Below are positions 33,075-58,060 of a DNA stretch of 64,000 nucleotides, piece by piece; the first letter of the stretch is position 1; each line of letters opens with the position of its first letter. Source of the stretch: a virus (taxonomy: Duplodnaviria > Heunggongvirae > Uroviricota > Caudoviricetes); the IMG/VR virus record IMGVR_UViG_3300033747_000014; one strand, 5' to 3'. Below the pieces are notes generated by a model, which saw only the letters and a list, made by a program, of their open reading frames with translations, searched no databases and was not told the DNA's origin. The translations under genes were made by a program, and so were the position numbers.

Positions 33075-33150
33075 TTGTTATCCTGAAGAGGGATAAGGGC
33101 GTAGCTATTATGTTTAGTAGCTGGAAGAGTAGACTCCACCCTAATAATTT
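33075..33150 (+). ncRNA. dispersed sRNA family, copy A
   Basis: promoter TATCTTTG 33065; GGGCG 33097; hairpin AGCTATTA/TAGTAGCT; GGAAGAGTAGACTCCACCC 33123-33141. Confidence 0.7.
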
Positions 33151-33176
33151 TAAAAAAATTATGTTAAGTTGTTTTC

Positions 33177-33204
33177 GTTTATCATAATGTGAGTTATAGG
33201 ACTG
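33177..33204 (-). other. dif-like tyrosine recombinase core site 1
   Basis: minus strand CAGTCCTATAA-CTCACA-TTATGATAAAC. Confidence 0.45.
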
Positions 33205-33239
33205 GTGAATCATTTAAATTTAAAGGGTTTGATGAGGTT

Positions 33240-33267
33240 ATTTATCATAATGTCAGTTATAAGACAG
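33240..33267 (-). other. dif-like tyrosine recombinase core site 2
   Basis: minus strand CTGTCTTATAA-CTGACA-TTATGATAAAT; one mismatch to the XerD arm TTATGTTAAAT. Confidence 0.45.
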
Positions 33268-33299
33268 GGGAGTTCACTATTAAACATAATATACCAATA

Positions 33300-33370
33300 T
33301 TAGGTAGGATGGAGTCTACTCTTCCTGTTACTCTAAGAATAACACCGCCCCTCATCTCTTTAAGATGATA
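33300..33370 (-). ncRNA. dispersed sRNA family, copy B
   Basis: promoter TATATTTG (33374-81, minus); GGGCGG; TGTTATTC/GAGTAACA; GGAAGAGTAGACTCCATCC. Confidence 0.7.
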
Positions 33371-33443
33371 TAACAAATATACTATTAGTTCTCCAGTGTA
33401 CCAAATTATTTAACATTTTTAACATTTCAATATATAGATAAAA

Positions 33444-33472
33444 AAAATCCTATACTTATTATATAGGATTTT
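33444..33472. terminator. intrinsic terminator
   Basis: AAAATCCTATA/TATAGGATTTT. Confidence 0.75.
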
Positions 33473-33484
33473 AAATTTAAAATA

Positions 33485-33739
33485 TTAATAATAATATTCA
33501 TTAAAGAATTTATCAATAACATTATGCGTATCATAATCAATATATTTCTTTTCCATAGCCATGAATTCTTTAAATTTATCATAGATAAATTCATTACTAT
33601 CTAAATATAAAGGTGATTGGGTTTTAATCCAATTTTTAAATTCATCTTTACATTCATTACAAATATAATACTCACCATTTACACAGGTGTCACACATTAT
33701 ATTATCACAACCGTTTTTATCACAACTTAGTACTCCCAT
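33485..33739 (-). CDS. Cys-rich Zn-binding hypothetical protein
   Basis: MGVLSCDKNGCDNIMCDTC..YICNEC. Confidence 0.75.
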   Translation of the reverse strand: MGVLSCDKNGCDNIMCDTCVNGEYYICNECKDEFKNWIKTQSPLYLDSNEFIYDKFKEFMAMEKKYIDYDTHNVIDKFFNEYYY

Positions 33740-33751
33740 AATGATTATTGT

Positions 33752-34159
33752 TTAATTTAAAATTTCAGAATTAATATTGAGGTGTAGCAAATACCCTTGT
33801 TTATGATTGTTTTTAGCTATGATTTTAAGCCTGTTTATTTTTCTATCATAATATTCCATGATAGAGATTAAACGTTCATAAACCCTATAATATTTAGATA
33901 ATTTACCAATCAGTAATAAACGAATTTTAAAAAAAGGATTTAAAGTCATTAATTTAAGTTTAAATCTTTTACCCTCTAATGAATTAATAATACTATAATA
34001 ATGAATTGCTTCATTTATTTGACGATTACCAACAGATATACTTCTTGAAGCTAAATAATCAGCATATTGATTAAACATTTTAAATTTAATATCTTTTCGA
34101 TAATCTATTTTGCTTTTAGGATAAAAATTCATAATTTTAAATTTAAAGATTGTTTTCAA
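33752..34159 (-). CDS. hypothetical basic protein
   Basis: co-oriented ORF. Confidence 0.65.
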   Translation of the reverse strand: MKTIFKFKIMNFYPKSKIDYRKDIKFKMFNQYADYLASRSISVGNRQINEAIHYYSIINSLEGKRFKLKLMTLNPFFKIRLLLIGKLSKYYRVYERLISIMEYYDRKINRLKIIAKNNHKQGYLLHLNINSEILN

Positions 34160-34901
34160 TCCATTCAGGAATTTGATTATATGGATCAGTCATTTTATTT
34201 CTTGCAATATGTGATTGCATAATTAAAAATTCAACATCTTCTTTGGTGTATAGTCTTTCACCATCATCACCCCATAATTTACCATCGGATTTTCTTTCTG
34301 ATTTTTTCCAAACAAATTCCATATTCCAAATATGTTCAATTTCTCTACCTGTTAGGGAATCTGGTTTTCTTTTGTAATATGTAAGTGCTAAACCATGTTT
34401 TTTCAACATAGAAAGATTATTCCACCATTCCATAGCTTTTTCACGGTCTGTTTTATTAGATGGATGAGTAGGACTTAATGTAGTAGAACCACAATAACAT
34501 CTCTTAGATCCTTCTTCATGGATTGATTTGCAATTTTCACAAATTAGTTTTTTCATATCTTGTTCTCCCTTAATTCTCCAATTATCAATATGAATTTTAC
34601 CAAATCCTTCACAATAAACATAACCTTCATCATCCTGAAGCTTTACTGCTTCATCATAAGGAGTATTAATAATAAACTCATCACTTATTTCTTGAGTGGT
34701 AAGAGTTTTAAATCTATGTGGGTTTAGTTCCACTATTAAATTCTCAATATATTTATTAATATCATAACCACATTCTTTCAAATAAACCAAAGATTTAAAA
34801 TACCCAAGTTCCATTGAAGGTATTATAATTTCAAAGATTTTACCATCAGATAATCTTTTAGCTTTTTTTCCTGTTAGAGTAATTCCATTAATTGTTTTCA
34901 T
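34143..34901 (-). CDS. hypothetical protein with Zn ribbon
   Basis: start trimmed to MKTING; CENC..CYC. Confidence 0.75.
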   Translation of the reverse strand: MKTINGITLTGKKAKRLSDGKIFEIIIPSMELGYFKSLVYLKECGYDINKYIENLIVELNPHRFKTLTTQEISDEFIINTPYDEAVKLQDDEGYVYCEGFGKIHIDNWRIKGEQDMKKLICENCKSIHEEGSKRCYCGSTTLSPTHPSNKTDREKAMEWWNNLSMLKKHGLALTYYKRKPDSLTGREIEHIWNMEFVWKKSERKSDGKLWGDDGERLYTKEDVEFLIMQSHIARNKMTDPYNQIPEWIENNL

Positions 34902-34990
34902 ATCTTGTTTTGTTTTATGATTACAATACAAATATATTACAACTAAATAACCTATGCAAATTATAAGTGTTAAATAATGTTAAAATAAAA

Positions 34991-35021
34991 AAAGGAATAT
35001 AGTATAAAACCATATTCCTTT
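34991..35021 (-). terminator. terminator after the ncRNA array and tRNA-Leu
   Basis: AAAGGAATAT/ATATTCCTTT stem followed by a U-tract on minus. Confidence 0.7.
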
Positions 35022-35058
35022 CTCATCATTAAACCATTAAAACAAAACTATTTGAGAG

Positions 35059-35144
35059 TGCCGAGAACAGGACTCGAACCTGCAAGACCATTACTGATCG
35101 GTAGAGTTTAATTCTACTATGTTTACCAGTTTCATCACCTCGGC
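35059..35144 (-). tRNA. trnL: tRNA-Leu(TAA)
   Basis: GCCGAGG/TCTCGGC acceptor, GTAGA-ATTAAAC-TCTAC anticodon arm, long variable arm, GGTTCGAGTCC T-loop. Confidence 0.9.
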
Positions 35145-35150
35145 ATATAA

Positions 35151-35548
35151 ACAGATGACTATTTTACTACTATCGCTATATCCATTAGTTTTAAAAAAGA
35201 TTGCTGTAAGTCATCTTATGAGATTTTCAAAAGATTTTATTTTTTAAATTTAATTATTAGACAGATTATATCTAAACGATATAAGAGTATATTTATTCCT
35301 CAATTTACTAATAATTAAAAAACAGGTAACTATATTTACGTGTCAATTTAAAAGATTGATGTATATAAATAGTTGCTGTAAGTTACCTTTTACAAGTGAC
35401 AAACGGATTTGAACCGCATCTTTAAATGTTTCAGAATTTAAATTTAACCATAGGGTGGTTGCTGTATGTCACTTTATAGAAACAGATGAGCATTTATTTA
35501 TCCAAATCATATATCAGGTTTTTTTAAATGATTGCTGTTGCTCATCTT
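35151..35548 (-). ncRNA. tandem array of four ACAGCAA stem-closed RNA units
   Basis: units 35151-35217, 35322-35389, 35392-35474, 35482-35548; 8-9 bp covarying closing stems, invariant ACAGCAA, 3' GT. Confidence 0.75.
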
Positions 35549-35625
35549 TTAATTAAGAGGTTGGTAGAAAATATTATCATGAAAACACGCTGACGTTTCA
35601 GGTGACAACCAACCTCTTTATAAAT

Positions 35626-35820
35626 TTAAAAGTTATCTAAAAGATTATTAATCTCTTTTTCAATTTTACTGGTGATGTCTGTATTACCAGATAAATTCTT
35701 ATGGGTTACAAGCATGTTTGTTAATGTTTGCAAAATCCCAACTTTCTTTTCTCTTATAGAAACATTATGTGTTTCATTATTTCTATTTTTAATAGATTCA
35801 ACTAATACATCTTCAGTCAT
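35626..35820 (-). CDS. hypothetical protein
   Basis: ORF after a promoter at ~35845-35875. Confidence 0.65.
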   Translation of the reverse strand: MTEDVLVESIKNRNNETHNVSIREKKVGILQTLTNMLVTHKNLSGNTDITSKIEKEINNLLDNF

Positions 35821-35881
35821 AAATATTTCATTTTTAATTACAGTACAAATATAACTCTTTTATTTTTCCTGTGCAAGTATT

Positions 35882-36196
35882 TTATTGATTTTTTTCAAAA
35901 ATTTCTTTAAGATCATCAATACTTTTCATTTCTTCATTATCAATCCATAAATGAGAATCGAGGTAATTTGTAAAGATACTGATTCTATCTTCCCATTCTT
36001 CATCAAATGGATCTACATCGAATTTATTAAGTGCTGTAAGATATACACTTTCGATAATTGAATTAAAATTATCATCAGATTCAATTTCAACATCCTCAAT
36101 CTCTACATCAAAATTTTTCATTTCTCTTTCAAGAAAATCAACATCGGCATATCCACAATCAAGAAATTCTGTAAGTAGTACTGTCTTAAAATCCAT
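35882..36196 (-). CDS. hypothetical acidic protein
   Basis: own promoter; IFTNYLDSHLW motif. Confidence 0.75.
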   Translation of the reverse strand: MDFKTVLLTEFLDCGYADVDFLEREMKNFDVEIEDVEIESDDNFNSIIESVYLTALNKFDVDPFDEEWEDRISIFTNYLDSHLWIDNEEMKSIDDLKEIFEKNQ

Positions 36197-36266
36197 AACG
36201 TTTAGTTTTAATGATTAATTTGATATTACAAATATAGGGTAAATATTTTAAACCACCAAATCTTTT

Positions 36267-36767
36267 TTAAAAATTCTTTAAAGATTTTACAATATCAACC
36301 ATAACACCATCAAGAAGGATTGCTTGTCCAGATGTTTCTCTACCCCAAATAGGAGCCATATATTCATCAATGATAACTTCTCCCCTATCTTTCAATTTCT
36401 CTGCAAGGAAAGGACTAACAATCCAATATTCCAATGGTTCTGGATATTCATCAAAGTCAAGATTCCCCAGTTCTTCAATTTTTTCTTCCAGTTGAGAAAT
36501 TTTTTCTTCTACTTCAATTTCTTGTTCTTCTGAAATAACTTCATGAAGTTCATCATTAAGTTGATCAATTTTTTCATCTCTATCCTCAATTATTTTATCA
36601 ATTTCCTCTTGGGTATATTCCTCACCCTCATAAATACATTTAGGTGTACAGTATTCAAAGAGTTCAATTTTATTTGTTTCGATGAGGTCTTGAACTATAT
36701 CGGTAACATTTGAATATACTTCACGACCTACAAATTCTCCAACGGTATTCTGACTTACTTTGCTCAT
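36267..36767 (-). CDS. conserved phage hypothetical acidic protein
   Basis: EYWIVS..LAEKL...GE...IWGRETSGQAILLD motif of a widespread phage family (from memory). Confidence 0.85.
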   Translation of the reverse strand: MSKVSQNTVGEFVGREVYSNVTDIVQDLIETNKIELFEYCTPKCIYEGEEYTQEEIDKIIEDRDEKIDQLNDELHEVISEEQEIEVEEKISQLEEKIEELGNLDFDEYPEPLEYWIVSPFLAEKLKDRGEVIIDEYMAPIWGRETSGQAILLDGVMVDIVKSLKNF

Positions 36768-36866
36768 AGTTTTATGTTTTAATGATTAATATTGTAGTAC
36801 AAAGATAATACAACTGTACATTATATGCAAATTTTTTATGTTAAAATTTGTTAAGTGTACATTATA

Positions 36867-37040
36867 TCAATATTTTATAAATTTAACTTTCCATTTTTTA
36901 CCAGTGGTATAATCAAAAAATTTTATCACATCATTAGGTTTACCACTATAAAACATATTTATTAGAAATCCATTAGTAATTTCATCAATAGTTTTATAAT
37001 GAGAATAAACATTATCATAATAAAATTCTACAGCTTGCAT
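36867..37040 (-). CDS. hypothetical protein
   Basis: start trimmed to MQAVEF. Confidence 0.55.
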   Translation of the reverse strand: MQAVEFYYDNVYSHYKTIDEITNGFLINMFYSGKPNDVIKFFDYTTGKKWKVKFIKY

Positions 37041-37349
37041 AATTTTAAATTTAAAGTTTTTTACATAGTGGATAATAAACACCATTCTTTTTTGACCACA
37101 ACCATTTTTCAGGATTTTGAACTCCTGAAGCATCGTGTTGATGTTGTTTTGCTATTTTCCAAGTAACTGTTTCCATAAGATTCTTTTTTCTTTATTTGTT
37201 ATTACAAAGATATGTACATTATATGTAAACTCCAAATATTAATAGTTAATAAATGTTAAAAGGTGTACATTATATACTAATCATAAGTAATATGTATTTC
37301 AGAAATATTTTCCTTTGATAATTCCAAAGAAAGATATATTGTTTTAAAT

Positions 37350-37817
37350 TTAAATTGAGTCAACAAAATCTTTAAATTTAAAAGGATGATTCATTAATTC
37401 ATATAATGAGTCATATCCAAATTCTGAAGTCCTTTTAAAATTAAATTCTGGTTTGGGATAGAATGATTCACTAATACCACCTAACTTTCCAAATGAGACT
37501 GTTTTAAAAGAGTGTCCGGTTTCTTCTATAACAAGTTCATGTTGTCCATAAATATCAGCAACACCTATTGTTATTTTCTGTATATTGATGTGTACACTGC
37601 TTAGATCTTTTAGAATTTGTTTTACATTCATAACAGTAAAGAATTTATAATTTGATTCGAATTCATCCCAAGATATTTGAATAATTGTCCAATCTTTAAA
37701 TTTAGATTGTGTTTGTTCAAAAGATTCACCTAAACTAAATTTAACTTTATCGTTTTTAATTACTTTAAAAGGTAGTTTGCCTTTTGATTTAGCAAGGATC
37801 ATTTGATCTCTATTCAT
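37350..37817 (-). CDS. hypothetical protein
   Basis: ACTGTACAAT leader. Confidence 0.75.
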   Translation of the reverse strand: MNRDQMILAKSKGKLPFKVIKNDKVKFSLGESFEQTQSKFKDWTIIQISWDEFESNYKFFTVMNVKQILKDLSSVHINIQKITIGVADIYGQHELVIEETGHSFKTVSFGKLGGISESFYPKPEFNFKRTSEFGYDSLYELMNHPFKFKDFVDSI

Positions 37818-38178
37818 ATTGTACAGTTTTTAAATTTAAAATCCCGAAACCACCATCAATTCTATCAATCAAATCATTTAGATCGTAAGATTGATAATAA
37901 TCCCAATTTTCCATAAGGTCATTCTGTACAATATCACGAACTTTTCTTATGGTAAGACCTTGGCCTTTTTTCTCCATAGGGATTTTATCTCTCTCCATGA
38001 TATAAGAATCCTCATCATTCTCATAATCTTTTCCATATCCCTTTAAGATCCTTACAAGATGATAATCCCATACATCAGGACAAATAAATATCCTAATATA
38101 TTTGTTTTCTTCATACTCTGGATTTTCTTTAAAAGCAAAATCCGTTATCTCTGTATATTTACCAAATTCAAATAGCAT
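37810..38178 (-). CDS. hypothetical protein
   Basis: co-oriented ORF. Confidence 0.75.
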   Translation of the reverse strand: MLFEFGKYTEITDFAFKENPEYEENKYIRIFICPDVWDYHLVRILKGYGKDYENDEDSYIMERDKIPMEKKGQGLTIRKVRDIVQNDLMENWDYYQSYDLNDLIDRIDGGFGILNLKTVQYE

Positions 38179-38185
38179 AATCTTT

Positions 38186-38827
38186 TTATTTTATATCAAT
38201 GAATATTCCAATTTCTTTTAATTCGTTATAATCCAAATTATGAATCAAACGTGCAAAATAATCCATAGAAACACGACCTACTTCATTTTTAAAATTAATT
38301 TTATCAGTGTTAAATCTAATTTTATTTAGGAATTGGTAACATACATATTCAATAAAGATATTTATATCACTATAAGCTTCTATATTATCCCATTCTCCAT
38401 CTTCATTTTTATAAATTAAAATGGGTCGGCCAATCCAAGAAGTGGAAATTTTAAATTTATTTTCATTGAGCAAAGGTAAAATAGTTTCAATAAAAAACTC
38501 TTTAATTTTACCATTTATAAAATCATTTACCTCATCACCTATTTTCTTAATTCCTTCTTGAATATTTGTAGCATTAGCAAACATCACTGGTTGTTCATCA
38601 ATCAAATATATTTCAGCCTGACCAGAAAAAGAAAACTTTTTAATGATAGATAATATCTCATCAATTGTATTAACATTGTCCAGTGAAGGAACCTCATCAG
38701 GTTTAACATACTGAGGATAAAAAGATGGATCGTTAATAATACCATCCTCATTCTCAAAAAAATCAGCATATTGATAAAAACCTGCCTTAGAGTATTTAAT
38801 TGTATATTTTTTTACTTTTTTAAACAT
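38186..38827 (-). CDS. hypothetical protein
   Basis: own promoter at ~38865-38900. Confidence 0.8.
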   Translation of the reverse strand: MFKKVKKYTIKYSKAGFYQYADFFENEDGIINDPSFYPQYVKPDEVPSLDNVNTIDEILSIIKKFSFSGQAEIYLIDEQPVMFANATNIQEGIKKIGDEVNDFINGKIKEFFIETILPLLNENKFKISTSWIGRPILIYKNEDGEWDNIEAYSDINIFIEYVCYQFLNKIRFNTDKINFKNEVGRVSMDYFARLIHNLDYNELKEIGIFIDIK

Positions 38828-38919
38828 AGTGGTTTGTTTTAGTTTTAATGGTTATTAATTTAATATTACAAAGATAACTACATAATTCAAATATACCAAA
38901 TATATTTAGTTAATAATTG

Positions 38920-39201
38920 TTAAAATATACGTTCAAACACATGACCAACAAAACCACCCATTTGATATTGATATGTACCAATGTACACTCTATCTACACC
39001 CATATCAAAATAAATTTCCTGACCAGTACCAAAGAGTTCAAAAAATCTTACTTCTTTGTCGTTACACGTATCGACTAATGCCCAAATACAAGGAGTATTA
39101 GTTTTTTGATCAATTTGTACTGTTAGAATTTCAGCACCTTCGGGTATAGATATTTTTGTAATATCATTAAATTCTAATTCAAATTTCCAGATAGTCATCA
39201 T
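38920..39201 (-). CDS. conserved phage hypothetical protein
   Basis: IWKF.L..., IP.GAEIL.VQ, IWALVD, GTG and YIGT motifs. Confidence 0.8.
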   Translation of the reverse strand: MMTIWKFELEFNDITKISIPEGAEILTVQIDQKTNTPCIWALVDTCNDKEVRFFELFGTGQEIYFDMGVDRVYIGTYQYQMGGFVGHVFERIF

Positions 39202-39219
39202 AATGTACAGTTTTTAAAT

Positions 39220-39474
39220 TTATCTTTGTTTAAAATTTTTATCATCAATTGAAAGATATAAAATGTGTGGAAGAACTTTTGAGGGTTTTAACATGATATT
39301 ATATCCTTTGGATAATATATCACTGATAACATAATTAATGTATCTTTCTTTTGTCGTTGTGAGAAATCCTTTAACATCAATTTCTTCATTATGTTTATAA
39401 TCCAAATCTTTAAATTTAGAACCTCGAAAATAAGATATTAATACTACGTCTATGTTTTCAAAATAATCATTCAT
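39220..39474 (-). CDS. hypothetical protein
   Basis: ACTGTACATT leader. Confidence 0.7.
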   Translation of the reverse strand: MNDYFENIDVVLISYFRGSKFKDLDYKHNEEIDVKGFLTTTKERYINYVISDILSKGYNIMLKPSKVLPHILYLSIDDKNFKQR

Positions 39475-39492
39475 AATGTACAGTTTTTAAAT

Positions 39493-39711
39493 TTAAAGTT
39501 TGGTTATATCGATAAGGTCATCTACATAGAAGACATCAATAAATTTATTTGAGTTGTCTTTATTTATAACAAACCAAACAAACTCATCAATGAATTTTTT
39601 ATTTGTTGTGGGTTTAAATTCCTTTAGGAATTCAGCAATTTGATAAGAATAAAATTCTGTTCTTAGAGTTCCCAAAGATTCACCGTTTTTATTAATTTCA
39701 ATGTACTGCAT
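39493..39711 (-). CDS. hypothetical protein
   Basis: co-oriented ORF. Confidence 0.65.
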   Translation of the reverse strand: MQYIEINKNGESLGTLRTEFYSYQIAEFLKEFKPTTNKKFIDEFVWFVINKDNSNKFIDVFYVDDLIDITKL

Positions 39712-39730
39712 AAAAATAAATTTAAAAATA

Positions 39731-40066
39731 TTAGTAGTTCAAATCAAAAATCCATTGGTTTAATTCGTCTTGATTCCAATTAATACGATTAATGAGGTCA
39801 CGAATAATCTTTTTACCCTCATTGGTAAGTTTATACCAATTAATTGCTCTGGGTGTCAATCTTGCGTATGTTGGTTCAACATACTCTTTTATTTGTTTAA
39901 CCTCTGAAAGTAAAGCAGGAAATAACAATTCTGTATCAATATCACCATTATTAAATTGGTGGATTCTTCGATAACATTCTAACAAAGGAACGTATTTTGC
40001 CTTTGCCCTAATATTGTTATCTTTTTTCCAATTTTCAATTTCTTGAAGTACTGAATTTTTAATCAT
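39731..40066 (-). CDS. hypothetical protein, possibly winged-helix
   Basis: start trimmed to MIKNSV; WYKLTNEGK motif. Confidence 0.7.
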   Translation of the reverse strand: MIKNSVLQEIENWKKDNNIRAKAKYVPLLECYRRIHQFNNGDIDTELLFPALLSEVKQIKEYVEPTYARLTPRAINWYKLTNEGKKIIRDLINRINWNQDELNQWIFDLNY

Positions 40067-40094
40067 TTCCTTTTGTTTTACTGGTTCGTTTTTA

Positions 40095-40281
40095 TTTTCG
40101 ATTACAAACATACAACAAATAAAAATACTATCCAAACAATTTAACATCTTTTAATATTTAATCTATAATTTCTTAATAATAGTTAAAATACACCTATTTT
40201 AAATTTAAAATTTGGATGGTATTGTTTTTATCTATACATTTGTAGTGTTGTTAATTATTAACCATTAAAACAAATTAAGTT
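40095..40281. promoter_or_regulatory. back-to-back Bacteroidetes-type promoters at the strand divergence point
   Basis: minus TTTGG..TATGTTTG; plus TTTGG..TACATTTG; TTAACA boxes and TTTAAATTTAAA between them. Confidence 0.8.
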
Positions 40282-40482: not shown

Positions 40483-40492
40483 ATTTAAAATT

Positions 40493-41315: not shown

Positions 41316-41404
41316 TGGGTTTGTTCATTTTTGAAGGGTGTTCATGTAACGTGAACACCTTTCTTTTGTGAACAAATTTAAATTTAATTTTTTATTTAAC
41401 ATAA

Positions 41405-41483
41405 TAAAAAAAATTATATAGGTTGGAGTCCACTCTTCCTGTCACTTGTGATGACACCGCCCATCAGTCTTTCAATCTGATAG
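41405..41483 (-). ncRNA. dispersed sRNA family, copy C
   Basis: promoter (41486-93, minus); GGGCGG; TGTCA/TGACA; GGAAGAGTGGACTCCAACC; U-tract. Confidence 0.75.
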
Positions 41484-41661
41484 TACAAATATACCACATT
41501 AATTCATTCAAACCAAATTATTTAACACTTTTAACATTTGACTATTATTATCTTAATAAAAGTTAAAACTATCATTTTTTAAATTTAAAATTTGGATGGT
41601 ATTGTTTTTATCCTTACATTTGTACTGTTGTTAATTATTAATCATTAAAACTATTTGCTTT

Positions 41662-41964: not shown

Positions 41965-42053
41965 CATTTATTAACAGGAATAATTTGCATGGGTGAATTA
42001 TTCCTGTTACATTTGTACTAACAAAATAAGTTAAACCATTAAAACTAAATGTT

Positions 42054-43233: not shown

Positions 43234-43332
43234 ATTAATTAACAATTATTAACAGGAATAATTTGCATGGGTGAATTATTCTTGTTACATTTGTACTAAC
43301 AAAATAAGTTAAACCATTAAAACTATTTGATT

Positions 43333-43569: not shown

Positions 43570-43662
43570 TTAACATTTTTTAACAGGAATAATTTGGTTA
43601 ATTAAGTTATTCCTGTTATATTTGTACTAACAAAATAAGTTAAACCAATAAAACTATTTGAG

Positions 43663-43860: not shown

Positions 43861-43992
43861 TTTTTAAATTTAAAGTTTATGGTTCAACCTTGTGGATGAT
43901 AGCATGAAGAAGCAAGGGGAGTTCTCCAGCAACACTTCAAAGTTTGCTTAAAACTAATAACTTTATTTAAATTTATTTTTTATTTAACATAA

Positions 43993-44064
43993 TAAAAAAA
44001 ATTATATAGGTTGGAGTCCACTCTTCCTGCTACTTTTGATAGCAACGCCCACCCAAATCGGTAA
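43993..44064 (-). ncRNA. dispersed sRNA family, copy D
   Basis: promoter (44067-74, minus); GGGCGT; TGCTA/TAGCA; GGAAGAGTGGACTCCAACC; U-tract. Confidence 0.75.
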
Positions 44065-44241
44065 TACAAATATAAGAATAGTATTCATTCTAACCAAACA
44101 ATTTAACACTTTTAACATTTGACTATCATTATCTTAATAAAAGTTAAAAGAGAAAATTTTCCACTTTAAAATTTGGAGGGTATTGTTTTTATCCTTACAT
44201 TTGTACTGTTGTTAATTATTAATCATTAAAACATATTAATT

Positions 44242-45459: not shown

Positions 45460-45828
45460 ATGGAATTTCTATTCAATGAGAAAACTTATACTAAAGAACA
45501 AATAAAAGCAATAAATAAATTTAAAAGTTGCTTTAGGATTTTCTTTGAGGGTTGTACTTATGAATATATTGAACAGATTTATGAAACACATATTCCTATT
45601 AGGAATTTTGAAATTACAAATTTAACTTTTGATTTTCCTAAAAATGATATGATTGTTACTATTAGATTGGAAAATCCGGGGATTCTAATCGGTAAAGGAG
45701 GGGGAACAATTGATTCATTGAAGGAATATATTACAGATGTTTTCAATGGTCAATTTAAAAATGTTGAATTAAATATTGTTGAAAGTAAACTTTGGAGACA
45801 AACATTTATTCCTGAATTAGAGTATTAA
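45460..45828 (+). CDS. KH type-II RNA-binding protein (ribosomal S3 N-domain-like)
   Basis: VTIRLENPGILIGKGGGTIDSLK..VELNIVES matches the S3 KH pattern with a GxxG loop. Confidence 0.75.
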   Translation: MEFLFNEKTYTKEQIKAINKFKSCFRIFFEGCTYEYIEQIYETHIPIRNFEITNLTFDFPKNDMIVTIRLENPGILIGKGGGTIDSLKEYITDVFNGQFKNVELNIVESKLWRQTFIPELEY

Positions 45829-48969: not shown

Positions 48970-48997
48970 AAATTTAAAATTTTTTATTTAACATAAT

Positions 48998-49067
48998 AAA
49001 AAAAATTATATAGGTTGGAGTCCACTCTTCCTCTGACTTGTGATCAGAACGCCCGTCTTAATGACAA
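48998..49067 (-). ncRNA. dispersed sRNA family, copy E
   Basis: promoter TACTTTAG (49070-77, minus); GGGCGT; TCTGA/TCAGA; GGAAGAGTGGACTCCAACC; U-tract. Confidence 0.75.
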
Positions 49068-49226
49068 TACTAAAGTACTACATTTTACCTTAACAACCAA
49101 ACAATTTAACACTTTTAACATTTGACTCTTAGTATGTTAATAAAAATTAAATGATTAGATATTATTTGCATGGTATTGTTTTTATCCTTACATTTATAGT
49201 GTTGTTAATCATTAAAACTAAAAGAT

Positions 49227-50560: not shown

Positions 50561-50965
50561 ATGAAAGCTACTTACAAAAATCTGACAATCGAGAGTGAAT
50601 ATAAAGGAAATGAAATTTCTGATTGGGCATTGGTAAATAACCGTCATACACACCATAGTATAACGGTAAAGAATAATGATACTAAAATTAAAATTAAATT
50701 TAATTTTTGGGCTTCAATATCTCAACCTACAATTAAAACTGAAGAGGATTTGTTTAATGCTTTTCAATGTTTTATTAGTGATTGTATGATTGGTGGTGAA
50801 AGCTTTGAAGATTTTAAATTTAATTATTCTTACGAAGATAATGAAAAATCTGAAGAGATTTTTTCAAAGTGTGTAGAATCATACGAAAAGTTTAATGAGG
50901 TATCTGAAGAATCTGTGTACGATTTTGCAAATGAGTTAAGTGATTATATTGAAGAAAACTTTTAA
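50561..50965 (+). CDS. conserved phage hypothetical protein
   Basis: FWASI..P and AFQCFISD..G.SFEDF motifs. Confidence 0.8.
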   Translation: MKATYKNLTIESEYKGNEISDWALVNNRHTHHSITVKNNDTKIKIKFNFWASISQPTIKTEEDLFNAFQCFISDCMIGGESFEDFKFNYSYEDNEKSEEIFSKCVESYEKFNEVSEESVYDFANELSDYIEENF

Positions 50966-51046
50966 CATTTATTAACAGGAATAATTTGCATAGGTGAATT
51001 ATTCCTGTTATATTCGTAGTGTTGTTAATCATTAAAACTTCTTATT

Positions 51047-51235
51047 ATGGATTTAAATGAAATAAAAGAACAAGTACAAAAAGCTGGTAACATTATTGAA
51101 TCAGTTGATGAGGTAATAACAAACGAATTGGTGAACTCCCAACACGCAAGCCATGAATTTAAAGAAAATCAAAGAATATCGAATGCAGTTTTAAATGTTA
51201 TTCGTGCTATTGATAATCTTAAACATGAACTTTAA
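51047..51235 (+). CDS. hypothetical helical protein
   Basis: hairpin promoter. Confidence 0.7.
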   Translation: MDLNEIKEQVQKAGNIIESVDEVITNELVNSQHASHEFKENQRISNAVLNVIRAIDNLKHEL

Positions 51236-51245
51236 ATTTAAAAGA

Positions 51246-51689
51246 ATGAATAAATTTAGTTTATCACATGTAGCATTATATACAAAAAATTGGTATAATC
51301 GTTCAGGTAATATAATTGAGGATTTATCTAAATGTATTGATGCAGATGGTTATTGGATGAATAATACCTCACATGAAATTTTTAATTTAATTTTTGGTAA
51401 ATTGATCAATTCAAAAATTATTCACCCAGAAACAAATTTAAAATCTTTAATTAACTCTGCCAGTCCTCATGATTCTTGGAGGGTTGGATATTACACAAAA
51501 GATTCTTTATGCAATCCAAACCCTAAAGTGGAATATGAATATTATACAGCGTTAATTTATTCGTGTATGTATTATATTCAAAACCTTGAAAAAGATCAAT
51601 GGAATTATCATGTAAAACCAGATCCAAAAGTTTTACCTGTATCGGAAAAGAAAATAAAAGAATATGAAAATCTTTTGATAAAGTCATAG
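51246..51689 (+). CDS. hypothetical protein
   Basis: HVALYTKNWY motif; start trimmed. Confidence 0.75.
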   Translation: MNKFSLSHVALYTKNWYNRSGNIIEDLSKCIDADGYWMNNTSHEIFNLIFGKLINSKIIHPETNLKSLINSASPHDSWRVGYYTKDSLCNPNPKVEYEYYTALIYSCMYYIQNLEKDQWNYHVKPDPKVLPVSEKKIKEYENLLIKS

Positions 51690-51832
51690 TTTAGTTTAAT
51701 GGTTAACAATAGAAAACCTCATCTTTCAAACGTGATTGATGAGGTTTTTAACATTTATTAACTAAATTAATTTGGTCTATTAATATTTTTAGTTTATATT
51801 TGTAGTGTTGTTAATCATTAAAACTAAAAGAT

Positions 51833-52267
51833 ATGAAAATTAGTAACCATAATATTAGTAAATATTTCGATTATACTTGCATGGATATTTGTGAAGATAT
51901 TAATAAAAGAATTGAAAAATTTATTAATGACTATCAAAAAAAGATGTTTGGTAAAGCATTCTTTTTGGATGTTGAATATAGAAATGTTTTAATTGATCTT
52001 ATTTGGTATAGGGAAGACAGATTAAAAACTCACATTCATTTGTGTAGGATTAATAAATTACCAGAGGATTCATTTGCAATCCAACATGCAAGATATTATT
52101 TAAAAAGATTGAAAGATATTGAATTTAAATCATTTATTCATGTAATGAGATTAAACACTAATTATTCGTGGTTTGGATTTTCTCAAAAAAGAAAAGACGA
52201 AATGAATAAAGAACTTTGTGAAATTGCTAAAAAAGTTGTTGAAAAAATGAAAAAAGAAAAACTTTAA
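51833..52267 (+). CDS. hypothetical protein
   Basis: own promoter and leader. Confidence 0.75.
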   Translation: MKISNHNISKYFDYTCMDICEDINKRIEKFINDYQKKMFGKAFFLDVEYRNVLIDLIWYREDRLKTHIHLCRINKLPEDSFAIQHARYYLKRLKDIEFKSFIHVMRLNTNYSWFGFSQKRKDEMNKELCEIAKKVVEKMKKEKL

Positions 52268-52284
52268 ATTTAAATATAAAAATT

Positions 52285-52512
52285 ATGTGTAAATTTTGTA
52301 ATAATTCTGGAGTTCGACTTGAAACTTATTTTAATGAAGAAGAACAAGAAACAGCAGATTTTCAATTTATGATTTATGGAGGTAAGTATTTGCGTGTTAG
52401 TTCTGATAAAGTACTAGAATTGGGTTATTTACAATTAGCTCATGCAGGTAGTCTTGAAATAAATTATTGTCCTATGTGTGGTAAAAAACTTGAAAATTAT
52501 ATGATGAAATAA
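52285..52512 (+). CDS. Zn-finger hypothetical protein
   Basis: MCKFC...INYCPMCGKKL. Confidence 0.75.
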   Translation: MCKFCNNSGVRLETYFNEEEQETADFQFMIYGGKYLRVSSDKVLELGYLQLAHAGSLEINYCPMCGKKLENYMMK

Positions 52513-52612
52513 ATTTAATTGGTTTAACATTTATTAACACGAATAATTTGCATAGGTGAATTATTCGTGTTATTTTTGTATTAGAAAATTAAAACTAAAA
52601 ACAAATAGAACC

Positions 52613-53722
52613 ATGAGACTAATTAAAAATTTAAACAAAGACCTTGGTCAGAATACAGACCTATTTACAAATGTAGCTGCAAAGATAGCATCCGTGTTTA
52701 GCGTTATCTTTGCAATGAGTATTGTATATGAACTCAAGGATCATATTGATCTTTGGTTGGTTGGAATCCTTTCAATCTTTATTGCTTTCTTTCTTATTGT
52801 AAATGAAGTAATAAAAATTAAAAGCATTAAAAACGTTCATAATGGAAATAACAAAGCGTTATTATCTTTTATTTTCACTTTTGTTATCTCTATTGCTCTG
52901 AGTGGAACAGGTATTTATCTATGGGTTAATAAAACTCAAGATATTAATTCAAAATCTTTAATTGATAAAACTGTTAAAGTTAATGATATTAAATCGGAAT
53001 ATACAAAAGAATTTGAAAGATTAAATTTAAAATCCTTTGAAGATACAAAAGAATTTTTAAATTTAAAAAAATCTTTAACCTATTGGGAAAATAGATCTGC
53101 TGCTACTCTTGATGAGAGAACAGAAATTCGCAACACTATTAGAGAAATTCAAAATAACATTAATGAGAACAGAAAAGTATTTAATACAGCAAAAAAAGAA
53201 CTCATTAATGAAAAAGAAAATGAATTAGAATCTAAATTAAAAGTGGTAGATGTAGAATTCAACAACCAATCAAAAGAAGTAAACAAAAATAATCTGCTTA
53301 CTTATATTCTTTTGACCTTAGTTATTATTGTTGAATTTGCAATTATATATTTAAACAATAATATTGCCAAAGGAGAACAGGAGATTTTAAATTTAAAAAA
53401 TAGTGATGAGGTTAATAAATATTTTATTGGTAGAAAAATATTAAAATCCCTCTATTTGACGGCTGATTATGATGAAAACAACGAATTGTTTACCACAATC
53501 AAAAAAGCACAGTATTTGGCTAATAAAACGTCAAATTTGGAGTGGGAAGACTTTGCTGAATTATATAATCTTTATATTGATCTGGGAATTCTGGATAATG
53601 GTTCCACTATGAAACCCAAAGATGAAAATAAAAAAGGAATCCTAATGAATAGAATTATTATGCAGGATAAAAATATGGCATTTAAAAAATATGATGAGTT
53701 CTATAATATAGTTTTATCTTAA
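52613..53722 (+). CDS. membrane protein with long coiled coil
   Basis: three N-terminal TM helices, a coiled coil, one further TM; start trimmed. Confidence 0.85.
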   Translation: MRLIKNLNKDLGQNTDLFTNVAAKIASVFSVIFAMSIVYELKDHIDLWLVGILSIFIAFFLIVNEVIKIKSIKNVHNGNNKALLSFIFTFVISIALSGTGIYLWVNKTQDINSKSLIDKTVKVNDIKSEYTKEFERLNLKSFEDTKEFLNLKKSLTYWENRSAATLDERTEIRNTIREIQNNINENRKVFNTAKKELINEKENELESKLKVVDVEFNNQSKEVNKNNLLTYILLTLVIIVEFAIIYLNNNIAKGEQEILNLKNSDEVNKYFIGRKILKSLYLTADYDENNELFTTIKKAQYLANKTSNLEWEDFAELYNLYIDLGILDNGSTMKPKDENKKGILMNRIIMQDKNMAFKKYDEFYNIVLS

Positions 53723-53802
53723 CATTTATTAACAGGAATAATTTGCATAGGCGGATTATTCCTGTTATATTTGTATTGTTGTTAAATTTTAAATTTATTC
53801 TT

Positions 53803-54021
53803 ATGATGTTTTCAGAGTTAATGAAAGAAGTTAGAGACTTGTTTAATGCTTGGATGAAAGATGATGATATTCTTAATCATTATTCAGGTGATGAGGTTGA
53901 AATCCAAAGAGAATTTGTTAAATGTGTTCAGCAAGAAATAGGATCTAATTTTGTGATTCTTACTGAAGAAGAATTGCAAAATAAATTAGATTCTTATTAT
54001 GAAACTATGGAGGGATTTTAA
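53803..54021 (+). CDS. hypothetical protein
   Basis: start trimmed; hairpin promoter. Confidence 0.65.
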   Translation: MMFSELMKEVRDLFNAWMKDDDILNHYSGDEVEIQREFVKCVQQEIGSNFVILTEEELQNKLDSYYETMEGF

Positions 54022-54129
54022 ATTTAAAAAGTTTGATTGGTTTAACATTTATTAACACAAATAATTTGCTTATGTGAATTGTTTGTGTTATATTTGTATT
54101 AACAAATTAACCATTAAAACTATTGAATT

Positions 54130-54516
54130 ATGAATTTAACTGAAAAACAAATAGAAGAATATAACGAATCAATTGGTAAGTTTATGAATATGAAAACTGG
54201 TTTAACTTATCAGTTGTTTGGTGAAAATTTAAATTTAACTATTCTTGATCGAACACGTACCTTTTGTTATCCTCACGAATTAAGGTTTCATAAGGATTGG
54301 AATTGGTTGATGGAAGTCATTGAAAAGATCGAAAAATTACCAATCACAGATAATGGTGGAATATGTGTGTCAATTGAACATAACTATTGTAGAATTTATC
54401 TGGATGATTGGGGACAGTTTACAGATATTGCTATCGGTATTTCAAAAAATAGTAAAATTGAAGCTACTTTTAAAGCAGTAGTTAATTTCATTGAATGGTA
54501 TAACCAACAAAAATAA
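54130..54516 (+). CDS. conserved phage hypothetical protein
   Basis: FHKDWNWLMEVIEKIE and IEATFKAVVNFIEWYN motifs. Confidence 0.8.
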   Translation: MNLTEKQIEEYNESIGKFMNMKTGLTYQLFGENLNLTILDRTRTFCYPHELRFHKDWNWLMEVIEKIEKLPITDNGGICVSIEHNYCRIYLDDWGQFTDIAIGISKNSKIEATFKAVVNFIEWYNQQK

Positions 54517-54520
54517 TATT

Positions 54521-54877
54521 ATGAATAAAACAATAAAGAAAATATTGATAGGGAAACTTTTTAAATTTAATCCTTGGCTTAATACGCTTTTTGTTATTGT
54601 CGGGGTTAGATATAATCCCTATCATAATATTATTGATATTTTAGTTGGTAGAGTTTATTTAAATGCAAAAGAAATACAAATTTATTCATGGTATCAATTA
54701 AATAAATATGATATTCATTTTTGGAAAAGAAGTAGCAAAGAAGAAATAAAAAAATGTTTGAAAACTAATCCAGATAAAATAAAATATCATATTGGTGAAT
54801 GTATTGATATTTCTAAATTTGAAATTTATGAATATAAAACCAATTATTATCAGGAGTATTTAAACCAACAAAAATAA
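54521..54877 (+). CDS. hypothetical protein
   Basis: start trimmed to MNKTIK. Confidence 0.7.
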   Translation: MNKTIKKILIGKLFKFNPWLNTLFVIVGVRYNPYHNIIDILVGRVYLNAKEIQIYSWYQLNKYDIHFWKRSSKEEIKKCLKTNPDKIKYHIGECIDISKFEIYEYKTNYYQEYLNQQK

Positions 54878-54884
54878 ATTTAAA

Positions 54885-55085
54885 ATGAGATACGTATATC
54901 AAATACATGAAGACAGTGAAATATATAGTAGTCGTTTAAAAGCACATAAAAGACTATGTAATATATGGAGAAAAGATATGGATGAATTTCTACCAATTAA
55001 GGAACGGATTCATCCCAGATGTAAAGGTTGGGTTGAAATAATATATTCTAATGGTGCAACTATAACCAAAAGACCTTTACTATAA
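54885..55085 (+). CDS. hypothetical protein
   Basis: co-oriented ORF. Confidence 0.65.
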   Translation: MRYVYQIHEDSEIYSSRLKAHKRLCNIWRKDMDEFLPIKERIHPRCKGWVEIIYSNGATITKRPLL

Positions 55086-55284
55086 CATTCTTTCGTACAT
55101 TGTAGTTACTGCACATTGTGTTTTAAATTTAAAATGGACATTGTGTATATGTACACGTACATTATATATCCCTAACTGTACATTGCACCCCCACCCCTAA
55201 AGAATGTACACTTTTTATTTGGTAGTCTCAAATATTATCACTATATTTGTATTATAATAATTAACCATTAAAACTATTTCAATT

Positions 55285-55524
55285 ATGATGACAGTCGCAA
55301 CAATTACAGAACTTCTAAGAACATTGAAAAAATATTTACTCTTAAAGTATCATGCAGAAGGTAGATCAATAGATCGACCAGAAGTAAACCAATCCCTTAA
55401 TGATATGTTGAACAATATCATTATTGAACTGGAGACTTTGAGAATGAAAGAACAAATATCAGAAGAAGATTTTGAAAGCCTTGTGGAAATTGCTGAGAAA
55501 TATACCTGCCATTTGCAACTATAA
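55285..55524 (+). CDS. hypothetical helical protein
   Basis: own promoter; terminator at 55552-55590. Confidence 0.7.
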   Translation: MMTVATITELLRTLKKYLLLKYHAEGRSIDRPEVNQSLNDMLNNIIIELETLRMKEQISEEDFESLVEIAEKYTCHLQL

Positions 55525-56036
55525 ATATTGATTCGTTTTGCCATAAACGCAAAAAACCCTTCATTGATTATTTCAATGAAGGGTTTTTTTATAGTGTTTA
55601 ACCAAAAAAATAAATTTAAAATAGACAAAACAATATTACATTATGTTAAATAACCTGAAGCTATTTAACATAATAATTCTATTGGTAAATAAACATATTA
55701 TTCCCATCCTATTTAACAAAATAGTTTTTCATGTAATTTATGTTTGTCTTGTCTTTCTTTATTCATACGCAAATAATTTAATTTGTTTCTTTTTCTATGT
55801 TTAACCGATGCAAAAGTAATGCAAGGGATTTGCACAAACAATATTTAAATTTAAAATGGTCAACTTTCACATATTTTAACATACCTGCCATCTATCTTAA
55901 TTTTTGTAAACTACCGGAACCGGCTCTCCACCAGGTGTTTACACCAATTCACTAAAATTCTAATTGTTAATAAAAGTTAATATTTTAAATTTAGCTTGGT
56001 GGTTCAAATATTTACATTACCTTTGCATCAGTGTTT

Positions 56037-56082
56037 AACCATAGTGGTTTCACGGGTTTTTAATGCCACTATAAAAAACCGT
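56037..56082 (+). promoter_or_regulatory. 5'-UTR H-type pseudoknot resembling a preQ1-I riboswitch (variant), copy 1
   Basis: ATAGTGG/CCACTAT P1, ACGG/CCGT P2, ATAAAAAA L3; promoter TACCTTTG at 56018; ATG at 56092. Confidence 0.55.
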
Positions 56083-56091
56083 TCTTTGTGT

Positions 56092-56280
56092 ATGGAAATT
56101 GATGTTTGCGATTTGTATGAATTTTATCTAAAGGGATATGAAAATACGGCATATACTTTTGGATATGTGCCAGAATTCAAAGATAGTAAAACCATTGAAG
56201 CTTATGTAATGGGAAGCATTGATGGTAGAACAGATCAAAAAAAAGATTTTGAATGTTTCATTAAAAAATTTCAAAAATAA
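56092..56280 (+). CDS. hypothetical protein
   Basis: start trimmed to MEIDVC. Confidence 0.7.
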   Translation: MEIDVCDLYEFYLKGYENTAYTFGYVPEFKDSKTIEAYVMGSIDGRTDQKKDFECFIKKFQK

Positions 56281-56281
56281 T

Positions 56282-56653
56282 ATGGAAAAGTATTTTTTGA
56301 ATGTTTCGGTTGAAAATAAAGTTTATACTTTTGAGGGTTCTTTAAAAAGCACCCTTAGAAGGTGTAAATTTTATGAACACAAAAGAATCAATAAAATAGA
56401 ACCAATCGGTTCGGAGGTTGTTTCTGTTTATAGTTTCGTAAACAAACACCCTGAAGATTTTACAGTATTAGATATTGATGGTAAAATTTGTGGGGCTGAG
56501 TTTCTTCCCAAAGATGCACTTGTTTCTCAAAATACTGGAGTGGTTGTTTATCCTACAGGTTTCTTTGGGTTTCAACTGACCCTTAAGCCAAAGATTGAAA
56601 AAGCTTTTGATAGCTTATTAAGTCAAAAAAATGAGATCCCTATCTTATATTGA
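56282..56653 (+). CDS. hypothetical protein
   Basis: start trimmed to MEKYF; terminator at 56671-56704. Confidence 0.75.
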   Translation: MEKYFLNVSVENKVYTFEGSLKSTLRRCKFYEHKRINKIEPIGSEVVSVYSFVNKHPEDFTVLDIDGKICGAEFLPKDALVSQNTGVVVYPTGFFGFQLTLKPKIEKAFDSLLSQKNEIPILY

Positions 56654-56709
56654 TGACTGGTAAATTAGTCAACCCCTGCAAGATTATCCTGCAGGGGTTT
56701 TTTTATGCT

Positions 56710-56845
56710 TTATAGTGCCGGAATTTAAACCAGAAACAGTCTTAATTTAATCTTTTATATCTTTTACGGGTTCTTACTCCAGATTGATGATTGAAGTCTT
56801 TAAACAGGCTTATTTTGAATCAGTGTTAATGTATGTTAAAGAATT
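56710..56845. repeat. intergenic duplication, copy 1 (copy 2 at 59066-59201)
   Basis: shared blocks GAATTTAAACCAGAAACA and GGTTCTTACTCCAGATTGATG...GCTTATTTTGAATCAGTGTTAAT. Confidence 0.85.
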
Positions 56846-56886
56846 TGGAGGTTTAAATTTAAAAAATTACCTTTGCATTAGAGTTT

Positions 56887-56930
56887 AACCAGAGTGGTTC
56901 ACGGGTTTTGAATGCCACTATAAAAAACCG
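56887..56930 (+). promoter_or_regulatory. 5'-UTR H-type pseudoknot resembling a preQ1-I riboswitch (variant), copy 2
   Basis: AGTGG/CCACT P1, CGG/CCG P2, ATAAAAAA L3; promoter TACCTTTG at 56868; ATG at 56941. Confidence 0.55.
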
Positions 56931-56940
56931 ATTTTTGTGT

Positions 56941-57249
56941 ATGGAAATTTTAAGCAAGTCAAAAGCAGGTTTAACAGTCAAACTGATGGCTGATAAAATA
57001 AGTTTTGCTTATATGGATAAAGCAAATAACATCTTTTACGATTTCGATCAATATAGATTGAATCGTATCTTTGATTCTTTGAAAGGAAAAAAAGGAACTT
57101 TCATTGAAGAGTACAAAGGTATTAGTAAATCTGAATTAAACCATATCCAAACACAAAACAACAAAGATCTAAACAGATTGGTTAAAAAAACAGGGTTAGC
57201 CGAATCTGCAGGAATAGTTACTATATTTAAAAACAAAGGTATTATCTAA
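56941..57249 (+). CDS. hypothetical basic protein
   Basis: start trimmed to MEILSK. Confidence 0.75.
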   Translation: MEILSKSKAGLTVKLMADKISFAYMDKANNIFYDFDQYRLNRIFDSLKGKKGTFIEEYKGISKSELNHIQTQNNKDLNRLVKKTGLAESAGIVTIFKNKGII

Positions 57250-57268
57250 TTTTAAAATTGTTACCACT

Positions 57269-57421
57269 ATGGAAACCATTTATGTAGTATTTGATGGAAC
57301 TTCTTTTTTTATGGCTTATCAGGAACTTTTAAACGAAGATCCAAGCTTAGAAGTTCACGGAGAATTTTCGGATATTGAAAACGCTTCAGATTTTTGTGAT
57401 CTTAAAAATCTGGAGGTTTAA
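57269..57421 (+). CDS. 50-aa acidic protein (not in the ORF track)
   Basis: hand translation METIYVVFDG...DLKNLEV. Confidence 0.6.
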   Translation: METIYVVFDGTSFFMAYQELLNEDPSLEVHGEFSDIENASDFCDLKNLEV

Positions 57422-57459
57422 ATTTAAAATCTTTAATGTTTAACCAAAAAACTAAAATC

Positions 57460-57900
57460 ATGCAAAACGAAATTAAAAACCTTTTAGAGACTATTTTACC
57501 TTCAAAAACTGTAATACTGGTAAAAGAACATAAAAAGATTTTTGATGACGGGAAAACCCTTCAGATTGCTTTTTATCCCGAATCTGAAACAATTAACAAT
57601 GTTAGGGGTCAATATCCACAAGTTGTTTCTTTAAGATTAGATCTCAATACTTTGGAACTGGAGCCACAAATTTATGGCGGTAACGGTGGAAGATGTATCT
57701 ATAGAACACCTGACGAAAAGCACAGTTATTTAGCTATGCAATCTATAAAAATACCATTCAGAAAGCCCAAACCAGAAAAAGATAAAATTCTGGCTGCAAT
57801 CAAAAGATTTGCGGAACGGTGGCTTCAGGCTTTAAAAGACAACAAAGATGTTTTGAAATACCACGATCTTGTTAACTACGATGAATATTTCAACAGTTAA
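57460..57900 (+). CDS. hypothetical protein
   Basis: start could also be 57436. Confidence 0.75.
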   Translation: MQNEIKNLLETILPSKTVILVKEHKKIFDDGKTLQIAFYPESETINNVRGQYPQVVSLRLDLNTLELEPQIYGGNGGRCIYRTPDEKHSYLAMQSIKIPFRKPKPEKDKILAAIKRFAERWLQALKDNKDVLKYHDLVNYDEYFNS

Positions 57901-57979
57901 CATTAGTTAACAACCATCCGACCAAATGTTAAAAATGTTAAATCCTTTGGTCGGATGGATTTTTATATATACTTTTGAG

Positions 57980-58060
57980 TATTCCTTTCAACGGAGAGGC
58001 TACCAAGGGCATGGTTATTTTGTTAAATAGCCGGAAGAGTAGACTCCAACCTACTTTTTT
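57980..58060 (+). ncRNA. dispersed sRNA family, copy F
   Basis: promoter TACTTTTG at 57970; GGGCA; GGTTATTT/AAATAGCC; GGAAGAGTAGACTCCAACC 58033-51; T-tract. Confidence 0.7.

Follow-up and report, generated by a model that had tools for sequence, protein, structure and literature searches.

The window analysed here is a stretch of 64,000 nucleotides (nt) from a virus of the Caudoviricetes (IMG/VR record IMGVR_UViG_3300033747_000014). An earlier note, made from the sequence alone, had described in it six dispersed copies of an apparently undescribed small RNA without a reading frame of its own. All six loci are present where they had been placed. The 19-mer GGAAGAGTRGACTCCAHCC has exactly six exact matches in the window, at 33123+, 33307-, 41421-, 44009-, 49013- and 58033+; it occurred in none of 100 dinucleotide shuffles of the window and its chance expectation is 0. 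A covariance model that was run over the whole window with the filters switched off returned the same six copies and nothing else (48-55 bits). Inspection of the flanks confirmed the layout which the copies had been said to share, consisting of a promoter, a 5' hairpin (P0), GGGC(G/A), a second hairpin (P2), the invariant block and an A/T-rich tail, and the arms of P2 are in all six copies precisely those given in the earlier note. The tail had been described as an A/T tract; its A/T richness was verified, but it is an A/U-only inverted repeat. Copies 3 to 5 have promoter spacers that are about half diverged. By contrast, they do not differ at all in GGGCG, the core, the P2 loop, the upstream element and 45 nt of the tail; three inner P2 pairs differ between these copies and each difference is fully compensated.

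Independent genes with their own promoters

The promoter of every copy is composed of TTTG, a spacer of 20 nt and TAnnTT(T/A)G, with the variant TACTTTAG in copy 5, and 15-29 nt lie between the end of the -7 box and GGGC(G/A) in all six copies. The claim of individual promotion is therefore borne out: with -33 and -7 boxes at short distance in six of six cases, the copies are independent genes. Homologues of the element use three different promoter types, and the promoter is likewise found at a fixed short distance. A sigma-70 promoter/terminator scan was uninformative for the promoter type of these copies, and its terminator part gave no canonical intrinsic terminator (G+C-rich stem with U run) at the six loci.

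For the genomic setting a gene map of the window was established with a codon-usage score trained on its long open reading frames (ORFs). On this map no same-strand gene follows copies 1-5. Copies 1 and 2 are convergent and 150 nt apart, while copies 3-5 occupy gaps between plus-strand genes, where they are divergent from the next plus-strand promoter (~41560 for copy 3, ~44141 for copy 4) and face the terminator of the previous gene. Between copy 6 and the DUF932 gene at 58194-59012 a separate promoter (~58109) is located. Four copies (1, 3, 4 and 5) are antisense or convergent to their neighbours, one more than had been counted. As to the reported lack of ORFs, mechanical ORFs of 43-59 amino acids (aa) do overlap some copies, but just one of them passes the score cut-off (33189-33368, plus strand), with a codon score of 5.3 compared with 16-64 for the neighbouring genes; the other overlapping ORFs reach at most 3. 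The six loci are therefore stand-alone units and not leaders. The wider family agrees with this in that the orientation relative to neighbouring genes is free throughout and that most relatives are followed by a fresh promoter and no regulated gene.

These data bear directly on two classes of cis-acting RNA. Riboswitches and cis-leaders lie in the 5' untranslated region of the same-strand gene which they regulate, and such a gene is missing behind copies 1-5 and separated by its own promoter in the case of copy 6. Processive antitermination RNAs like HK022 put and lambda nut (boxA/boxB) are promoter-proximal, act in cis and need downstream genes. The present element resembles them as a structured RNA directly behind promoters of early type, with a hairpin and a conserved linear element. 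However, five of the six copies have no downstream genes and most relatives run into the next promoter, and neither the codon-score map nor the orientation across the family places the element on one transcript with genes to be read through.

Table 1. Positions of the sequence elements in the six copies of the window (score: covariance model).
Copy (strand)	Extent	-33 box	-7 box	P0	GGGC(G/A)	P2	Core	Tail	Score (bits)
1 (+)	33041..33165	TTTG 33041-33044	TATCTTTG 33065-33072	~33079-33095	GGGCG 33097-33101	33102-33122 (8 base pairs)	33123-33141	A/U inverted repeat to ~33165	47.9
2 (-), convergent with copy 1	33275..33405	33405-33402	TATATTTG 33381-33374	~33369-33352	GGGCG 33350-33346	33345-33326	33325-33307	UACC, then A/U hairpin	53.0
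3 (-)	41395..41517	TTTG(G) ~41517-41514	TATATTTG 41493-41486	41481-41463	GGGCG 41462-41458	41457-41440	41439-41421	U8 and A/U hairpin to ~41395	51.4
4 (-)	43983..44098	44098-44095	44074-44067	~44062-44051	GGGCG 44050-44046	44045-44028	44027-44009	same as copies 3 and 5	53.7
5 (-)	48988..49101	49101-49098	TACTTTAG 49077-49070 (one mismatch)	49065-49055	GGGCG 49054-49050	49049-49032	49031-49013	same as copies 3 and 4	52.3
6 (+)	57946..58070	57946-57949	TACTTTTG 57970-57977	~57984-57999	GGGCA 58007-58011	58012-58032	58033-58051	UAC-U6-A9	54.7

Three further repeat types were noticed in the window. The element TGTTAAA stands in tandem upstream of the -33 box of every copy and also before ordinary gene promoters of the window (-33 TTTGG); examples are 33416-33425(-), 41537(-), 44118(-), 49121(-), 57926-57935(+), 40147(-), 56833(+) and 58109(+). 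It is also present in contigs of related phages and in phage Larrie, is similar to the XerD arm of dif and could be an UP-like element or the site of a phage transcription factor. Two direct repeats of ~26 nt (TTATCATAATGT-S-AGTTATA-R-GAC), ~60 nt apart, are located at 33177-33267, precisely in the interval that separates the convergent copies 1 and 2; they had been listed as dif-like sites in a separate note. Inverted repeats of 17 base pairs (bp) (TAACAGGAATAATT...) at 41972-42009, 43250-43287 and 43581-43618, all on the plus strand, end directly in the -7 box CATTTGTACT and are hairpin-embedded promoters.

A phage family with an invariant module

The exact pattern of the element was identified at 37 IMG/VR loci and, after relaxation at three positions, in at least 120 IMG/VR contigs among the matches listed. 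In true copies, GGC(G/C)N precedes the hairpin and CC is followed by U-R-C, although neither feature was part of the search pattern; a few matches without these features are located in coding sequence and were rejected as chance. An alignment (A1) of ~105 distinct copies was used to create a covariance model (R1), which detected a copy in all of the 39 IMG/VR records tested, including 11 of 11 near-complete genomes (~58-360 kb). The carriers span contig fragments of 28 kb, genomes of roughly 60 kb and jumbo phages of 360 kb. In these records there is usually one copy, in some up to five. The high dosage that had been proposed would be a trait of this phage only, with its six copies in the window; most carriers are single-copy.

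Among cultured phages the element is present in two, both from marine Flavobacteriia. In Tenacibaculum phage Larrie there is a canonical copy (18783-18835), together with a divergent copy (GGAAGGGUAGACUCC) and a convergent partner; the divergent copy and a copy on the opposite strand converge within ~40 nt (L134, record 16934-17060), similar to copies 1 and 2 of the window. The copy of Flavobacterium phage immuto is degenerate. All annotated coding sequences that flank the RNA in these two phages lie antisense to it. A scan of 185,579 bacterial and archaeal species, each represented by a single genome, gave only eight occurrences of the pattern; about half of these matches are chance occurrences in coding sequence and the rest lie on short contigs of metagenome-assembled genomes (MAGs), mostly from bins named Bacteroidota (Saprospirales, Bacteroidetes). 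As far as these genomes indicate, the element is restricted to phages.

Within the family, a window-type subgroup is characterized by a Bacteroidota-type promoter, GGGCG and CCAACC. A larger subgroup, group B, comprises genomes of roughly 60 kb with extended -10-like boxes a few bases before GGCCUG, the P2 loop UGAAAUA, CCGYCC and no U tract. No cultured relatives of the group B phages were found, and a megablast search with 8.5 kb of the window against cultured phages returned no relative either. Larrie and four complete or nearly complete group B genomes of roughly 62 kb have only four protein families in common, with identities of 23-35%: thymidylate synthase, a primase-helicase (T7 gp4-like) and two ribonucleotide reductase subunits. 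Judged from their proteins, the carrier lineages are unrelated.

The part which the carriers share is the invariant module GGAAGAGURGACUCC-NN-CC-URC, with a core of 22 bases that is constant in the ~105 distinct copies. Two relatives, L183 (151-260) and L188 (151-234), carry an insertion of 25-30 nt with hairpins of its own inside the module; it is placed between ACUCC(AC) and a second CUCCAACCUR-C, and the module is partly duplicated around it.

The covariation that had been read from P2 in the six copies was verified in the large alignment. The three outer (foot) pairs reach 94-95% pairing, each with 25-52 double changes and as many as five pair types; none of 500 shuffles reached the observed value, and slid controls were only 36-53% paired. 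G.U exceeds A.C by 24 to 4, and therefore the helix is selected on the transcribed strand. Its stem comprises 3-8 bp and its loops range from GNRA-type tetraloops to 13 nt. On the evidence of this alignment, P2 is the sole element proven by covariation.

For the core several pairings compete. The GAG-URGA-CUC hairpin described in the earlier note is possible; its stem shows no variation in 105 distinct alignment rows, and three scans of IMG/VR for members with a changed stem base yielded chance matches in coding sequence only. The three-way junction that GGG and CCU were supposed to close also remains at the level of a possible helix: the two strands are 79% paired, but without covariation in the main alignment, and the duplex energies of the 5' and 3' flanks are barely better than those of shuffles (mean z -0.7 and -0.4). 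A closing helix is supported by some variants: L025 has GUG/CAC, L068 can pair GUACAG with CUGUAC, and L192 UGGCG with CGCCA. In the RNAalifold prediction, by contrast, the partner of GURG in the core is CURC in the tail. This helix is 97.6% paired, with one double change (G-C to U.G) in one member; the two purine positions, the sole variable sites of the conserved block, each oppose U in it, and members that lack CUCC or CC (immuto, L192) retain UAC. The GURG/CURC helix seems to fit the variants at least as well as GAG/CUC, which never varies, and itself varies on one side only. The two helices are mutually exclusive at one base, so that a pseudoknot or a switch is conceivable. Moreover, some window-type members allow pairing between the purine run GGAAGA and the U-rich tail, which gives a hairpin of 10 bp in copy 6, and in the relatives L025 and L021 an alternative hairpin competes for the 3' strand.

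Comparison with known RNAs and search for a partner

In line with the earlier note, which had not recognised a known Rfam family in it, the element has no Rfam match. At the gathering score of Rfam 15 (4227 models) only three transfer RNAs (tRNAs) were recovered from the window. At E<=10 a single match overlapped copies 1-2, a 39-nt fragment of 6S-Flavo on the minus strand (33131-33169), antisense over the 3' end of copy 1; with 19 bits compared with a gathering score of 85, and E=7, it looks like chance. Ten homologous loci gave no overlapping match at E<=10. Full-text literature searches with the core sequence, and others on small RNAs from phages that infect these hosts, retrieved no description. 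This is an undescribed small RNA family, whose name, structure and function are absent from print within the reach of these searches. A screen of IMG/VR has reported 10,006 unnamed covarying viral RNA candidates (PMC10690425; Fremin, Bhatt and Kyrpides 2023). Source and kind of object are the same and the text of that paper does not contain the motif; the family might be among those candidates.

Targets for base pairing were sought in several ways. The complement of the 19-mer is absent from one genome each of the 185,579 species, the variable parts have no antisense target of at least 10 nt in the window, and complementarity to the 16S gene and internal transcribed spacer of one Bacteroidota MAG did not exceed that of shuffled sequences. 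Complementarity over 9 nt to a tRNA located in this spacer concerns the rare G variant only, lies within chance and was discarded. Lambda OOP RNA and the PR'-tR' 6S RNA are short promoter-to-terminator phage transcripts; OOP pairs antisense to cII and the lambda 6S transcript is the unread form of the late operon. Like these, the loci described here are tiny stand-alone units for the host polymerase and are often antisense or convergent to their neighbours. In contrast to them, the present RNA has neither an antisense target in the window nor a downstream operon, and its conserved part is intergenic and common to unrelated phages.

A protein partner encoded by the phages themselves was not found either. 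The product of 45460-45828 (+), which had been suggested as a candidate, is indeed a stand-alone KH_2 domain (E 4e-8), but homologues are encoded in only two of 41 carrier records, both related jumbo-phage contigs, and in none of the 11 near-complete genomes, which speaks against a general role as partner. Clusters of neighbouring genes are lineage-specific and consist of uncharacterised genes. At 66 loci the RNA is flanked, often on both sides, by a family of small proteins (75-125 aa) with the motifs KRFVVRKSLIG, YNHD, MPCW and SYT (e.g., L018:10055-10372, L059:4983-5210); it is confined to the uncultured lineage of roughly 60 kb and has no match in Pfam or PHROG and no relative in cultured phages. 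A co-travelling partner was rejected, as unrelated carriers have only genes of nucleotide metabolism and replication in common. Since the carriers share no candidate partner protein, either a host partner or a self-sufficient RNA has to be considered. The same lineage of roughly 60 kb also encodes an ORF of 3009 aa (L202:1316-10345, record G012) with only a weak polynucleotide-kinase-like stretch, which may be a giant virion protein or a polymerase.

Possible modes of action

The reading which we tentatively put first, at somewhat less than an even chance, is that of a trans-acting RNA which docks on a conserved host macromolecule. Each locus would be a gene in its own right, from which the host RNA polymerase produces a small RNA of ~55-90 nt, probably early in infection. 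This RNA would be composed in this order of an optional 5' hairpin P0, GGC(G/C), the free-sequence hairpin P2 and the invariant module; in Bacteroidota phages an A/U hairpin or U tract would end the transcript. The module beside P2 would serve as a sequence-specific docking site for a macromolecule conserved among the hosts (Flavobacteriia and other Bacteroidota), most likely a protein. The RNA would then act in trans as a decoy, sponge or cofactor, with P0, P2 and the terminal hairpin needed for folding and stability only. This reading is the most economical one because the genes are autonomous, the module is invariant and the unrelated carriers have no common partner protein.

Several points weigh against it. 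The docking partner is putative, and for the large group B set it is only assumed that the partner is one conserved in Bacteroidota. With a single copy in most carriers, titration of an abundant host factor is not obviously feasible. An invariant stem sequence is equally expected of a ribozyme or aptamer core. Finally, the six window RNAs fold with unexceptional energies, their z-scores of -2.1 to +0.6 being not significant, and the case for structure therefore rests on the comparison of homologues and not on stability.

A bolder version, which we regard as possible although rather doubtful, holds that the 22-nt module represents a new compact class of functional RNA (mini-pseudoknot aptamer, ribozyme or immune decoy). 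It would have been acquired horizontally by unrelated Bacteroidota phages, in which it would neutralise or exploit one conserved host process, and the copy number, six in the window, would tune the dose.

The main rival is a self-sufficient RNA, in which the 22 nt would adopt a compact pseudoknot or junction fold and, without any protein, either bind a small molecule, e.g., a nucleotide-derived signal, or act as a catalyst. Stem, loop and junction bases that are alike conserved beside freely varying peripheral helices are the pattern of an aptamer or ribozyme core; the overlapping GAG/CUC and GURG/CURC pairings are compatible with an H-type pseudoknot or a switch, and the competing 3'-strand hairpin of L025 and L021 as well as the missing phage protein partner point in the same direction. 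We nevertheless consider it unlikely, as there is no similarity to Rfam ribozymes or riboswitches at E<=10, the genes stand alone instead of leading regulated genes, no fold of the core has covariation support and the thermodynamic stability is unremarkable.

Improbable, too, is a mimic of the substrate of a host RNA enzyme or RNA-targeting defence. The RNA could resemble a tRNA minihelix, divert an anticodon or acceptor nuclease, or imitate the repeat that a CRISPR effector recognises. This would narrow the decoy idea to targets that are RNA-processing or defence enzymes. The element can be drawn as a tRNA without D arm, in which the G-rich 5' strand pairs with the bases after URC and GURG/CURC forms an arm, and P2 has a 5-bp stem and a 7-nt loop in the large subgroup. 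However, ARAGORN recognised only the three real tRNAs in the window and none at the homologous loci, the tRNA model RF00005 gave no match, the loops UGAAAUA, CUAACAA and ACUCCNNC are without T-loop or anticodon-loop signatures, the closing helix is weak and the element does not cluster with tRNA genes. Phage RNA decoys as such are known, among them RNA anti-CRISPRs and pseudo-ToxI. Both the RNA anti-CRISPRs (Racr, solitary repeat units) and pseudo-ToxI are reportedly phage-encoded small RNAs which, like the present one, are short, separately promoted and sometimes multicopy, and which occupy a host protein in trans through a conserved module. They differ in that they copy a host repeat or antitoxin with known targets, whereas the hairpin sequence is free here and not copied, and the core matches, apart from chance, only phage-like contigs in the 185,579-species set. 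This scarcity would argue against a CRISPR-repeat mimic.

We see hardly more reason to regard the element as a site for DNA replication or another DNA-level function, either as a transcript which primes or opens an origin in the downstream A/T-rich DNA or as a hairpin with a 19-mer that is nicked or bound as single-stranded DNA. The succession of promoter, structured transcript and A/T-rich inverted repeat would suit such a role, as would the single copy in genomes of roughly 60 kb and the T7 gp4-like primase-helicase, the sole information-processing protein common to the unrelated carriers. HUH-nuclease sites have the same layout of a variable hairpin beside an invariant sequence. Against this, origins would not be expected five or six times within 25 kb, the surplus of G.U relative to A.C indicates selection of the transcribed strand as RNA, the fixed promoter distance in three promoter dialects argues for an RNA product, and no HUH or relaxase gene was noticed among the neighbouring genes.

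Least probable of all is a module of promoter and terminator without function in trans (RNA polymerase sink, insulator between operons or, in some cases, cis leader or attenuator): despite the possible pairing of GGAAGA with the U-rich tail in the window, up to the 10-bp hairpin of copy 6, the position of copies 3-5 precisely at the borders of operons, where they point towards the end of the preceding operon, and an AUG after the alternative hairpin in a few relatives (L025), 22 bases invariant across unrelated phages are unnecessary for a terminator or insulator, the large subgroup is entirely without U tract and most copies are followed by another promoter and not by a regulated gene.

Phage small RNAs are known, and to our knowledge few families extend past one phage genus. 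Here, 22 bases are unchanged across phage lineages whose proteins are 23-35% identical or unrelated. Conservation this strict is normally the mark of an RNA that touches a universal machine or contains a catalytic or ligand-binding core. Should it be directed at a host factor or a defence system, the RNA would offer a new compact tool and, at the same time, a marker for a large group of marine and freshwater phages that are uncultured. As Tenacibaculum phage Larrie is cultured and carries a canonical copy, the family is open to study now.

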